NCBI GenBank assembly: GCA_042408215.1 | Contig: JAYFMW010000029.1 | Location: 64,001-128,000, forward strand | Source: Microcoleus sp. | Lineage (GTDB): Bacteria; Cyanobacteriota; Cyanobacteriia; Cyanobacteriales; Microcoleaceae | DNA: 64,000 bases | Direction: 5' to 3' | In this document: piece by piece, positions 11,580-50,243 of the stretch | Numbering within the stretch: position 1 is the stretch's first letter | Layout of the letters: each line of letters opens with the position of its first letter | Position numbers and translations under genes: made by a program | The notes under the pieces: generated by a model | What the model saw: the letters and a program-made list of their open reading frames with translations, nothing else | Database searches by the model: none | Told to the model about the DNA's origin: nothing

Positions 11580-12096
11580 AAAAAAATTCGGTAAGTGGGA
11601 AACTCAGTCACCAAGAGTGCTGAGAGGGAAACGGCAAGGCGGTTTCAACACTTCGACTTCGCGAGGGTGACCGCCGCCTTGAATCTTTCCATTACAGCGA
11701 TCGGGAATTGCTTAATGGGAGTGTACTTTTGTAATGTACTTTCAGTGGGACTCGGCGGAGTTGATCCGCTCGCGTAGCCGAAGGGCGAGCGTGCATCCCA
11801 ATTACCACTTCAAACTTCGCAATCCTGTACGCATAATGTTCGCTCCTTGCGGAGCCTCCCTTTCGGGGTAATGTTAGCTTGCCCCTTAGTTAACGGTCGG
11901 TACTATATCTAGGACACTGATTTAACTCAATAAGTCTGTTTAATCCTAGATTTCTAGAGCAGGGAACTAGCGAGAGCATTCCCTGGTAGGTCTTTAACTC
12001 TTACCGTTAACGTAGTACGCAGGGTACTGAGTCTGGTCAACTGCGATTTAAGTCTTAGGCTAGAAGCGAGCGTGTCTTTAGACCTGGGTCGTTGAC
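11580..12096 (-). mobile_element. non-autonomous IS200/IS605 element carrying a HEARO/omegaRNA, no iscB
   Basis: Minus strand GTCAAC...GTTGACCAGACTCAG...CTACGTT...GCTAGTTCCCTGCTCT...TTAAACAG...AAGCTAACATTACCCC; plus strand TCAT target, GAAA guide and CTCAG/CTGAG hairpin at one end, TGAC at the other. Confidence 0.85.
11860..12096 (-). ncRNA. HEARO / IscB omegaRNA scaffold
   Basis: Ordered HEARO hallmark motifs as above; 3' boundary approximate. Confidence 0.75.
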
Positions 12097-18169: not shown

Positions 18170-19503
18170 TTGACATCCTCCCCGGCGTGAACGCGCGGGG
18201 ATTCCAAGAATCACTTCTTAGTTTTCCTCTTTCCCCGACTCGGCTTACTTGAAGGAGTTTCCTCACCCAAATAGAGGTCGATGTCTCCCGAGGCGTTTAA
18301 CGTTCCCGTGTGCCCCACGGTACGAATTGCTAATTCAAGTATGTTGATAGCTGCGTTCCAGTCTCGGTCTAATACAAACCCACAATGATGACATTTATGA
18401 GTTCTTTGACTCAACGATTTATGGACAACTTCCCCGCAATTAGAGCAATTCTGGCTAGTATAGTGTGGCGGTACAGCTACTGTTGCCACCCCAAACACCA
18501 GGCCAAAATACTCTACCCATTGACGGAAAGCCGACCATGCAGCATCATTTATAGACTTAGCCAATTTTCGGTTTCTCACCATATTTCGCACCTGCAAATC
18601 CTCGTAGGCTACCAAGTCGTTAGACTGGACTACGCACCTTGCCAATTTCACGGCAAAGTCTTGACGCTGCCTACTTACTTTCAGGTGTTTGCGACTGAGG
18701 CGATTTCTCGCTTTGACTCGATTTTGAGAACCTTTCTTGGTTCGAGAAAGTTTACGGGACAATCGCTTGAGAACTTTTTCGGACTTTCTGAGATGTCGTG
18801 GGTTTTCAACAGTTTGCCCGTTATAATCGGTGTAGAAGTGAGTCAACCCAACATCAAGCCCGATGGTTTTACCTGTTGGTTCCCATTTTTCAATTCGTTC
18901 AGCGTCGATACAAAACTGAGCGTAATACCCATCGGCACGACGGACAACGCGCACTCGTTTGAGCTGCTTCAAGGCGTAGAAATGCAAGTCACGAGTCCCC
19001 CACAACTTGAAACTTCCTGCTTCAAAGCCATCGGTGAATGCGATCGTTCTTCTGTCGGACGACAGCTTATAACCTGTGGTTTTGTATTCCACAGAACTGT
19101 GAGTTTGATGTTTCTTGAAACGTGGAAAACCTTTTTTCCCAGGCTTGCCCTTTTTACAGTTGTCGTAGAACCGAGAGATGGCAGACCAAGCTCGTTCGGC
19201 GGATGCTTGCCTTGCCATCGAGTTAAGATTGCCAGCCCAAGGGAATTTTTGGGCGAGAACGGCGCAATACGCACTCAGATCGGATCGTCCGATGCCTTGG
19301 TTGTCCATCCAGTATCTGATGCAACTATTGCGAACAAATCTGGCAGTACGAATGGCTGCATCGAGTCGATCGTACTGTTGTTTTGTTCCCTCAAGTTTTG
19401 CTTCAAATACCAACATCTTACGTTGTCGCTCTCGGCATAAATCATTGTACCGCAAAATCAAAAAGCCGTCCTATAAGGACGGGGCTTTAAACCCATTTTT
19501 CCG
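18170..19503 (-). mobile_element. IS200/IS605-family element with solo tnpB
   Basis: Minus strand: TTAC target (19504-19507), AAAG guide, CCGTCC/GGACGG left hairpin; GAAT guide, CCCCG/CGGGG right hairpin, TCAA end at 18170. Confidence 0.92.
18211..19416 (-). CDS. tnpB: RNA-guided endonuclease TnpB
   Basis: GLDVG, YEDL, CSNC/CHHC zinc finger, DRDWNAA; start at MLVFEAKL. Confidence 0.95.
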   Translation of the reverse strand: MLVFEAKLEGTKQQYDRLDAAIRTARFVRNSCIRYWMDNQGIGRSDLSAYCAVLAQKFPWAGNLNSMARQASAERAWSAISRFYDNCKKGKPGKKGFPRFKKHQTHSSVEYKTTGYKLSSDRRTIAFTDGFEAGSFKLWGTRDLHFYALKQLKRVRVVRRADGYYAQFCIDAERIEKWEPTGKTIGLDVGLTHFYTDYNGQTVENPRHLRKSEKVLKRLSRKLSRTKKGSQNRVKARNRLSRKHLKVSRQRQDFAVKLARCVVQSNDLVAYEDLQVRNMVRNRKLAKSINDAAWSAFRQWVEYFGLVFGVATVAVPPHYTSQNCSNCGEVVHKSLSQRTHKCHHCGFVLDRDWNAAINILELAIRTVGHTGTLNASGDIDLYLGEETPSSKPSRGKRKTKK

Positions 19504-48103: not shown

Positions 48104-49165
48104 CTACGCCAAAACAGGCACCGGTTGCGGCCAGCGACCCATTACTTTACCAATAACCGCCAATTCTCCCATCAACTTGTCGAACTGATCCGGTGTTAAA
48201 GATTGCGGCCCATCAGACAAAGCTTTTTTCGGATTCGGGTGCACTTCTATCATCAGGGAATCAGTACCAGAGGCGATCGCAGCAAACGCCATTGACGGTA
48301 CAAACTGAGCCCAACCGGTGCCGTGACTGGGGTCAACCATAATCGGTAAGTGAGTCAGAGTTCGCAATACTGGAACCGCCGACAAATCCAGCGTATTCCG
48401 CGTATACTGCCTGTCATACCCGCGAATTCCGCGCTCGCACAAAATCACGTTCGGATTGCCAGAAGCCATGATATACTCAGCAGCCATCAACCATTCTTCA
48501 ATGGTTGCGGAAATGCCGCGCTTCAGCAAAATCGGTTTGTCTTGAGCTCCGACTTTTTTCAACAGTGAGAAATTCTGCATATTTCTCGCCCCGACTTGAA
48601 CCACGTCGGCTACTTCCACGATCGCAGTTAAGTCCGCCGCATCCATAACTTCGGTGATAATTCCCAAACCGCTAGCTTCCCGCGCCGCAGCTAGCAATCC
48701 CAAAGCACTCTCGCCGTGGCCTTGGAAAGCGTAGGGGGAAGTTCTCGGTTTGTAGGCTCCACCGCGCAGAAAATGAGCACCAGCAGCTTTGACGCGCATT
48801 GCCGTTTCAACAATCATTTCTTCGTTTTCGACGGAGCAAGGCCCTGCTACGATCGCGATCGGGTGGTGCAGGCCGATCGTCACAGTTCCTAAAGGAGTAG
48901 CGACTGCTACGGCGCTGGGTTCACCTTGACGGTATTCCAGACAAGCGCGTTTGTAGGGCTTTTCCACTCGCAGCACTTCCTCAATCCAGGTGCTCATTTC
49001 GCGCAGTTGCATGGGTTCGAGCTCGGCGGTGTCGCCCACCAAACCCATGACTACTTTGTAACGCCCGACTATTTTTTCTGGTATCAAACCCCAGTTAGTG
49101 CGGAGATCTTCGTCTAGGCGATCGATTTCGGCTTCTGGAGTGCCGGCTTTCATTACAATAATCAT
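48104..49165 (-). CDS. aroF: 3-deoxy-7-phosphoheptulonate (DAHP) synthase, class I-beta
   Basis: MIIVMK regulatory domain, AGPCSVE, RGGAYKPRTSPY, GARNMQN, DPSHG. Confidence 0.96.
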   Translation of the reverse strand: MIIVMKAGTPEAEIDRLDEDLRTNWGLIPEKIVGRYKVVMGLVGDTAELEPMQLREMSTWIEEVLRVEKPYKRACLEYRQGEPSAVAVATPLGTVTIGLHHPIAIVAGPCSVENEEMIVETAMRVKAAGAHFLRGGAYKPRTSPYAFQGHGESALGLLAAAREASGLGIITEVMDAADLTAIVEVADVVQVGARNMQNFSLLKKVGAQDKPILLKRGISATIEEWLMAAEYIMASGNPNVILCERGIRGYDRQYTRNTLDLSAVPVLRTLTHLPIMVDPSHGTGWAQFVPSMAFAAIASGTDSLMIEVHPNPKKALSDGPQSLTPDQFDKLMGELAVIGKVMGRWPQPVPVLA

Positions 49166-49571
49166 CAGAAAAATGGGTAGAAACCCCGTCTTTTTAGGAC
49201 GGCTTTACAGTTTTAGCGCTACTGCCTTGGGGTTGCTGGACTTGGTGTACTTTTGTAATGTACTTTCGACGGGACACTTACCGTCTCAAGTTTGACAACC
49301 CTGTACACATAGCGTTTTGCACGGGTTGTGCCTCCCTTACGGGGTAATGTTAGCTTCGACCTGTTACAAGAGTTTTTTAGGCTTGCAACACTGTTCCAGT
49401 GACCTTAGAACTGTTTAATCACAAGCGACAGAGCGGGGGACTAGCTACGCATCCGCCCGGTGTCGTGACTCAAATAACGTTTACCCAACGATCGCGTTGC
49501 GGTGGTCTGGTCAGGATGGCTTGCTAGATTTCTCTTACAAGCCTCATGCCGTCAGGGCTGAGGTTCCTGAC
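49166..49571 (-). mobile_element. non-autonomous IS200/IS605 element carrying a HEARO/omegaRNA, no iscB
   Basis: Minus strand GTCAGGA...TCCTGACCAGACC...ACGTT...GGATGC..GCTAGTCCCCCGCTCT...TTAAACAG...GTCGAAGCTAACATTACCCC; plus strand TCAT target, GAAA guide and hairpin; CAAG guide, hairpin and TGAC end. Confidence 0.88.
49335..49571 (-). ncRNA. HEARO / IscB omegaRNA scaffold
   Basis: Ordered HEARO hallmark motifs; 3' boundary approximate. Confidence 0.78.
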
Positions 49572-49781
49572 ATTTTTTCCTTTTTTTTGCTAGATTTGTT
49601 GCGCTAACACACGCATTATGCCACGGATGGAATCAGAAAAATAGATATAAGGGCGATCGACTTGTTTGCAGTAAGGACTTTTTTGACTCTGCGCGGGGCG
49701 GTTCAGAAACCGGGTTTCTGCGTAAAATCTCGTGAAGATGCGTCAATTCCCAGAGAAACCCGGTTTCTTAGACTCAGCGCG

Positions 49782-50243
49782 CTAACTTTTTGGTTTGGCG
49801 GCACGCCACGCTTCTCGCATCCGTCCAAAATTAGTATTGAATTCTTCCCACCCCAGGCTGCTTCCTGGAACTTCTTCATCCCAGGAAGCTGAAAGCAGTC
49901 CGTAGCTCAATCCCAGAACGCCTAGACCAAAACAGCCCATACTTACTAATAAGACTGCTGTGTTGGGTAGGTCAAACAAGCCCTTGCTGACAATTAAATA
50001 ACTCACAAAAAATGTGGAAATTCCCAGGAGTGTCGGTAAGCCGCAAAATAAGGCTATGCGCGATATCATGCGTCTGCTGACTGCTTCTGGGATGGATTGC
50101 GCCTGGGGGCCTGTTTTGTTGGCTTGGGGCTGTTTGTCTTCTTTGACTAGGTTTTCTTGGGGTTCTGCGGGCTTTTTGGGCGTTTTTTTGCGATTTGCGA
50201 TCGGTTCAAACGGTAAGCGCTGGCGGGGTGGTTCGGAGGACAT
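49782..50243 (-). CDS. pam68: PAM68 family PSII assembly protein
   Basis: LPFEP, IPEAVSRRM, two TM helices, SYG.LSASWDE; follows rpsO. Confidence 0.92.
   Translation of the reverse strand: MSSEPPRQRLPFEPIANRKKTPKKPAEPQENLVKEDKQPQANKTGPQAQSIPEAVSRRMISRIALFCGLPTLLGISTFFVSYLIVSKGLFDLPNTAVLLVSMGCFGLGVLGLSYGLLSASWDEEVPGSSLGWEEFNTNFGRMREAWRAAKPKS

Follow-up and report, generated by a model that had tools for sequence, protein, structure and literature searches.

The position of a mobile element directly 5′ of the start codon of aroF, a DAHP synthase gene, raises the question of how the element came to lie there and how the gene is expressed behind it. We analysed a window of 64,000 nucleotides (positions 64,001 to 128,000 of contig JAYFMW010000029.1) from the genome of a Microcoleus sp., hereafter G000 (7.36 Mb, 99.98% complete). 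In the window, aroF occupies positions 48104–49165 of the minus strand and encodes 353 residues (NF009933, 675 bits). A profile search of the genome returned one match to PF00793 and none to PF01474; no class I or class II paralogue was thus found in the genome, and no stand-in for aroF was detected. The upstream co-oriented gene, a PAM68 family member (PF11947, 49782–50243, minus strand), is a possible source of read-through transcription. A candidate extended −10 element (TGG CATAAT, 49615–49623, minus strand) was seen by eye between the two genes and is kept in relatives; the promoter scan did not flag it. A consensus scan of the minus strand found no promoter or terminator inside the element. 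Elsewhere, the window carries a single rRNA operon containing two spacer tRNAs (22754–27889), two further tRNAs near its start (374–601), and two TnpB-family ORFs (33134–34363 and 18211–19461; PF01385, PF07282).

The element spans 49166–49571 (406 bp, minus strand) and encodes no protein. Its first 228 nt (49571–49344) match the HEARO covariance model of Rfam (RF02033), the IscB omegaRNA scaffold, over the whole model (1–211) with 133 bits against a family cut-off of 83, and the scaffold begins at the right end of the element (GTCA). On the plus strand, the right end (49538–49571) consists of the DNA guide CAAG (49538–49541), a hairpin (49542–49563) and the cleavage motif TGAC (49568–49571), while the left end, of type A (49166–49202), consists of 14 A-rich nucleotides, which form the U-tract before the AUG, the DNA guide GAAA (49180–49183) and a hairpin (49186–49202) with a single T-G pair in place of the C-G found in most sister copies. 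The last bases of the element are TTTTTCTG, followed directly by ATGA (49162–49165, minus strand), which comprises the aroF start codon plus A and serves as target tetranucleotide and predicted IscB TAM, as indicated by empty alleles and by the published N/ATGA target. The 16 nt that flank the right end (49572–49587, minus strand) constitute the guide of the G000 allele and overlap the displaced native Shine-Dalgarno-like (SD-like) AAGGA. The 3′ region of the element (49203–49343, minus strand), the place where iscB would be, lacks a protein-coding ORF and is common to a subfamily of short copies. In these copies, including positions 49203–49343 of the window, two conserved non-coding modules stand in place of iscB, the first with a TTGAAAGT..TACAAAAGTACACC core and the second with tandem hairpins bearing CAACCA loops.

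These features place the element in the IS200/IS605 family. It has subterminal hairpins at both ends without terminal inverted repeats, lies beside a tetranucleotide set by its DNA guide (TCAT with GAAA), shows no target-site duplication in the G000 allele, and is non-autonomous, with omegaRNA as its only cargo, in a genome that has Y1 TnpA matches in trans. The overlap with the target site is at most 2 nt in 41 of 42 mapped copies and 4 nt in the remaining one. Since no iscB or isrB ORF is present inside it, the element is, as judged from its sequence, a derivative of an ISC transposon rather than an ISC transposon proper. It is a known kind of parasite, whose class, ATGA target and need for outside transcription have already been published.

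Relatives of the empty type define the insertion point. In-silico removal of the element gives ...AAAAGGAAAAAAT joined directly to ATGATTATT, and exactly this reconstructed junction is present upstream of the element in three relatives. In each of the 41 non-carrier relatives fetched, the empty site falls precisely at the ATG, and a pattern search found the site empty in 74 of 75 non-carriers (it was not seen in G018). The element coordinates, the SD spacing and the guide pairs at both ends (GAAA:TCAT, CAAG:TGAC) of the original prediction are thus confirmed, and neither of the two observations that it named as fatal, a silent aroF complemented by a paralogue or empty-allele boundaries away from the ATG, was made. 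Its proposal that removal of the element restores an SD sequence holds for the reconstructed G000 allele, where AAGGA lies 6 nt before the ATG with a predicted anti-SD pairing of −5.8 kcal/mol, but not as a conserved property, as the SD-like AAGG is absent from many empty alleles of relatives.

The genome contains 70 HEARO matches, 20 Y1 transposase matches (PF01797) and at least 150 TnpB-domain matches. All 16 long ORFs beside HEARO matches (>330 residues) carry an HNH motif, so the partner is likely IscB rather than IsrB. The two omegaRNAs nearest to the aroF copy among these 16 (75%) come from 423-residue IscBs, encoded at C8:38348 and C3:407065 of G000, whose elements also end at ATGA; intact-looking IscBs with ATGA ends therefore appear to be available in trans as predicted partners. 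The left-end hairpin of the aroF element is common to TnpB-bearing and cargo-less elements. The pairing rule between guide and target is that of IS608, and it is obeyed by 95 of 110 left ends genome-wide, with guide and target co-varying in four pairs (AAAG:TTAC, 37; AAAA:TTAT, 22; CAAG:TGAC, 17; GAAA:TCAT, 16). This co-variation indicates that ATGA is simply the target written in the DNA guide of the aroF copy, and N/ATGA targets have been reported for cyanobacterial ISC elements (Kapitonov 2016, PMC4810608). The idea of homing to start codons accordingly survives as residence at starts genome-wide, but not as a dedicated start-codon-seeking device, ATGA being a known TnpA target.

Several further copies illustrate the family. 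Two short omegaRNA elements of G000 at unrelated sites (C5:439265–439672 and C7:267392–267799) are 99% identical, which suggests recent transposition of a protein-less copy. Elements with iscB sequence (1.6–1.7 kb; C23:24201, C3:407065 and C6:1039903 in G000) also end at host start codons, a response-regulator gene among them. Other copies lie on genes that we take, from their protein sequences, to be rpsP-, fusA- and pet-like. Lone left-end remnants without omegaRNA occur at several start codons of G000 (a hisG-like start on C6, and sites on C20, C14 and C7), suggesting erosion from the 5′ side with the ATG-adjacent end staying. Within the window, a second HEARO element (element no. 1; 11580–12096, minus strand, 517 bp, end type B) lies at the start of a 616-residue ORF; it too ends at an ATGA start, with an empty allele in G005, and is an independent insertion, as had been proposed.

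Start-codon bias was counted on ends mapped for 42 of the 70 HEARO matches (38 short copies and 4 with iscB sequence, the other 28 having other or degenerate ends), with gene calls from our own hexamer caller. Among the mapped copies, 31 of 42 lie on a start, versus 19.5% expected from non-coding-plus-start ATGA sites (p = 4 × 10⁻¹⁴), and the bias is real. With a background narrowed to ATGA sites no more than 60 nt 5′ of a start on the same strand, 76% are expected on starts. Of the 11 copies that are not on a start, 8 have one on the same strand at most 300 nt downstream. A start on the same strand was found no more than 150 nt away for 11 of 12 HEARO-bearing type-A ends, and for 6 of 37 TnpB-bearing and 9 of 42 cargo-less ends with other targets, on a background of 19–30%. 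Read most simply, these counts reflect residence in transcribed leaders, in which an ATGA that can be occupied without harm is most often the start codon, and the bias fits such residence because the guide needs a host promoter. The start-codon seat is best explained by the target motif together with promoter dependence, not by a translation-restoring device. A literature search of openly available full texts returned no paper joining IscB, ATGA, start codon and insertion, and nothing relevant for HEARO with cyanobacterial start codons; the term "start codon" has no occurrence in the main text of PMC4810608.

RNA libraries bear on how aroF is read behind the element. In five of six runs (X1, X2, X3, X9 and X12), contigs cross the element–aroF junction unspliced, and in X14 they stop short of it; the contigs were assembled from samples in which related strains are mixed, they give no strand, start or level, and DNA carry-over is possible. 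Such bridging agrees with the proposal of the original prediction that the element acts as a 5′ leader. The omegaRNA is covered in RNA-library contigs, which are strandless, some without mismatch, and X12 crosses the 5′ junction. Four RNA runs have a gap in cover at 49584–49657; as X12 and X19 span this stretch, the gap was not read as a transcription start. IStrons are IS200/IS605 elements that carry group I introns; Rfam returned no intron family at gathering score at the element.

The same element at the same site is shared between species. It is found at aroF in 4 of 79 congeneric genomes (G000, G008, G017 and G059), of which G008 is the sister of G000, while G017 and G059 are distant, with 83–93% identity to G000 in five flanking genes. 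In trees of the flanking genes, which include an AAA_35 protein, RuvA and PAM68, G017 and G059 each group with non-carriers, and the carriers fall in separate clades. Alignments nevertheless reveal a near-identical tract at 49158–49792, which extends from the aroF start to the pam68 end and takes in the element and the whole upstream intergenic region with the candidate promoter. In its 636 bp, G017 differs from G000 at 7 positions and G059 at 10 (binomial p about 1 × 10⁻¹² and 2 × 10⁻¹⁰ at the lowest flank rate). Among non-carriers, G020, from the sister group of G000/G008, comes closest to the tract (85%), which makes that lineage the likely donor. As a limited control, 40 kb of the window was compared with five distant genomes, and no shared piece exceeded 94% identity; 40 candidates were scored per genome, and short tracts within long matches could hide. 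Alignments and trees together show, at the level of sequence, lateral transfer of the aroF element at its orthologous site with co-transferred flank, as expected of a homing element. New here is this population evidence of the same omegaRNA-only insertion between species, with a sharply bounded tract. The homing of the original prediction may thus hold in another sense, namely as spread to other species whose orthologous site was empty.

Five elements (aroF, chlB, element no. 1, rpsP and ftrV) were tested for sharing between species. Such sharing was found at aroF and at the element at G000:C30:473184–473404, whose host gene we take from its protein to be chlB, and not at element no. 1 or rpsP. 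A full copy of the chlB element is present in five other genomes and part of it in one; between G000 and four genomes (five species) the element is 97–98% identical, with chlB fourfold sites at 74–84%. Its guide fits exactly at 41 empty sites, and G008, the sister of G000, lacks the element. The chlB element represents a second likely lateral spread. The guide of element no. 1 fits one genome, and the element is shared only with G008. The rpsP element is a counter-example to driven spread, its guide being exact at 40 empty sites, yet the element being found only in G008. At ftrV, more diverged elements (87–88% in the scaffold) sit at the same ATG in G017 and G013. At the ftrV-like start of G000 (C7:267392–267825), a 26-nt stub (GTCAAC...TTTTTG) lies directly 5′ of the element and resembles a collapsed older element. 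Widely matching guides have thus spread in two of three cases, too few for a test.

The carriers differ in what lies 5′ of the element. In G008, G017 and G059, and in runs X12 and X19, the first four aroF codons (49154–49165, minus strand) are duplicated 5′ of the element and there constitute the guide; X9 has 10 nt of the duplication as a loose end, and G000 and X16 lack it. A general target-site duplication was rejected, as none was seen in the 42 mapped copies, and the 12-bp duplication of the three relatives is an exception. A second aroF ATGA lies at Met5, 12 nt downstream of the start; the duplication form would result if the left end were cut at this farther TCAT and the product then inserted into an empty copy. 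The duplication shifts the guide onto the first four aroF codons while the gene stays whole. Together with the ATGA TAM, the duplication-type guide has an exact match in 49 of 75 non-carriers, whereas the A-rich leader guide of G000 has none in 75 even when one mismatch is allowed. The duplication-type guide matches its own filled allele over 12 nt, less than the 14 nt that OgeuIscB requires according to PMC9640706.

Both distant carriers are duplication-type and encode IscB-family ORFs. Their aroF codon 3 is ATA, which mismatches guide position 4, so that cleavage of the first recipient may not have been possible. This variant is found naturally in 7 non-carriers; G059 probably acquired it together with the tract, and it may be native to G017. 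An origin of ATA as escape from self-targeting was rejected as unneeded, the 12-nt self-match being below 14 nt and ATA being present in non-carriers. Across the genus, the synonymous variants ATA (7 genomes) and GTC (14) at codons 3–4 fall within the seed of the duplication-type guide, and they would be resistant alleles if that guide is active. The presence of the element in just 4 of 79 genomes is evidence against driven spread. Cyanobacterial cells are polyploid, and one recombined chromosome copy could direct cutting of the remaining empty copies. The aroF element may be able to home like a gene drive, with IscB driving the process. We put forward only tentatively that IscB cutting of the recipient's remaining empty copies helped to fix the element. 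The broader idea that protein-less omegaRNA elements at start codons act in nature as RNA-guided gene drives across species boundaries, with a conserved guide and a recipient IscB cutting empty copies and so fixing element and promoter tract, seems to us somewhat more doubtful still.

The reading that we consider likely is that a mini-transposon of the IS200/IS605 family (ISC-type), without a protein of its own but with an IscB guide scaffold, inserted 5′ of the aroF ATGA, now forms a leader that is probably unspliced and SD-less, and has crossed species. A TnpA encoded elsewhere would have inserted it, ATGA being read through the GAAA DNA guide. The host promoter probably drives transcription of the element, which would stay in the mRNA as an unspliced 5′ leader, and aroF is probably translated without an SD site. 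As the guide lies outside the element, omegaRNA would be made only downstream of a host promoter, and copies in 5′ leaders would therefore be the ones protected by a trans-acting IscB cutting the empty site, by extension from Meers 2023. The aroF copy, as the alignments show, also crossed between species by homologous recombination together with the upstream intergenic DNA.

Active restoration of aroF translation by the element, through precise RNA excision or initiation signals of its own as the original prediction had suggested, would suit the state of the gene, which is single-copy in G000 and, in line with the intact ORF noted originally, intact in all four carriers, and the presence of other copies on genes we presume to be rpsP-, fusA- and pet-like. 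The nonsynonymous/synonymous codon ratio of aroF is 0.26 in 30 carrier pairs versus 0.22 in 36 non-carrier pairs, a difference that is not clear, and relaxed selection in carriers was set aside. The transcripts and signals argue against restoration. No joint skipping 49166–49571 was found in eight runs (six RNA, two of unrecorded kind; contigs drop rare forms), the junction contigs are unspliced and no intron family matches, and RNA splicing and with it precise excision were rejected. A replacement SD was likewise rejected, none being present at the element end, and so was translational coupling via a TGATG or ATGA overlap, the frames that end there having no start codon. An SD-like AGGGAGG within 49203–49343 precedes a 14-codon GTG ORF that ends 113 nt before aroF and is not coupled to it. 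Predicted AUG accessibility falls from 0.53 in the empty allele to 0.39 with the element (genome median 0.50). The U-rich tract before the ATG is present as had been noted, but it is the complement of the A-rich left end and a general left-end feature that recurs in sister ends with TTAC, TTAT and TGAC targets, and its reading as an adaptation for translation was rejected. Among 29 start-codon elements, an SD occurs at the element end in 2 and in the displaced leader in 11. We consequently regard restoration as very improbable. An SD of −4 kcal/mol or better precedes just 33% of 3707 confident ATG genes, so SD-less initiation is the norm in this genome; in cyanobacteria, according to PMC6847405, an SD raises expression and SD-less genes compensate with weak structure, which makes a cost of the element to aroF likely.

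A more serious contender holds that the bias comes from TnpA site choice, namely single-stranded DNA near transcription starts, together with tolerance, that the omegaRNA is inert, and that sharing reflects ordinary recombination and drift. TCAT-target ends without omegaRNA lie on starts in 3 of 4 cases (2 of 2 cargo-less, 1 of 2 TnpB), so targeting or tolerance may contribute; the rpsP element has not spread despite its widely matching guide, both distant recipients carry the mismatching ATA, and gene flow in Microcoleus is reported in PMC10923798. Set against this, leaders hold no excess of sister ends with other targets (the 6 of 37 and 9 of 42 above), the limited 40-kb control revealed no other highly similar piece shared with distant genomes, and the scaffold is full-length at 133 bits. 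On balance, we give this account a minority chance. It is less plausible that the copy is domesticated, with element and promoter forming a useful regulatory leader of aroF (or chlB) that purifying selection maintains or that has swept across species through its benefit to the host. The high identity of the chlB element among five species whose fourfold sites have diverged, and the inclusion of the whole promoter region in the aroF tract, would be expected under such a use; the element, however, is absent from 75 of 79 genomes, the identity spans repeat-rich intergenic DNA that varies freely in non-carriers and so fits transfer rather than constraint, sister G008 is empty at chlB, and related copies still transpose, as the 99%-identical pair indicates. 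We regard domestication as improbable, though slightly less so than restoration.

The mini-transposon and leader reading connects the locus with several known systems. Like the ISC N/ATGA transposons of Microcystis aeruginosa described in PMC4810608 (ISC1-1_MA and IS605B-1_MA), the aroF element has a GTCA 5′ terminus, insertion 5′ of ATGA and subterminal hairpins, and it shares its ends with TnpB elements and would be mobilised in trans by a Y1 TnpA, the cognate TnpA here being predicted. Unlike those transposons, it has no iscB or isrB gene, and three of its carriers have a 12-bp flanking duplication, while the ISC family is described there as making none. Protein-less omegaRNA elements (PATEs) that need outside transcription have been described in Geobacillus stearothermophilus (Meers et al., bioRxiv 10.1101/2023.03.14.532601), and the aroF element resembles them, as presented in that preprint, in its right-end scaffold, 5′-flank guide, dependence on outside transcription, co-orientation with upstream genes and service in trans without a protein of its own. 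It differs from them in that the bias is here resolved to 5′ leaders and start codons, including that of a single-copy biosynthetic gene, and in that lateral transfer has placed one and the same insertion at the orthologous site of different species.

Homing of OMEGA elements into homologous chromosomes is treated in a review (PMC13565253) as theoretical or suggested for TnpB and awaiting validation. As in the "non-restorative" OMEGA homing outlined there, and in intron homing with co-converted flanks, element and flank are found in the empty allele of other lineages, and the guide matches the empty allele in full but just 12 nt of the filled one. In contrast to TnpB homing, the acting element would carry only the omegaRNA of an IscB and would spread between species through putative cleavage. 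The aroF element is also similar to the IStrons of that review in sitting in or at host genes without destroying them; unlike IStrons, it has no intron family match or spliced joint, and harm would be avoided by staying 5′ of the ATG. To these systems the aroF locus adds an insertion that moved between species with 7–17% flanking divergence and a mobile allele whose duplication points the guide at conserved coding sequence. In four species, a single-copy gene for biosynthesis has been maintained with a structured 400-nt leader that removes its SD, which makes the locus a natural test of SD-less initiation in cyanobacteria, and it provides named alleles, guides and candidate IscBs with which OMEGA homing can be tested.
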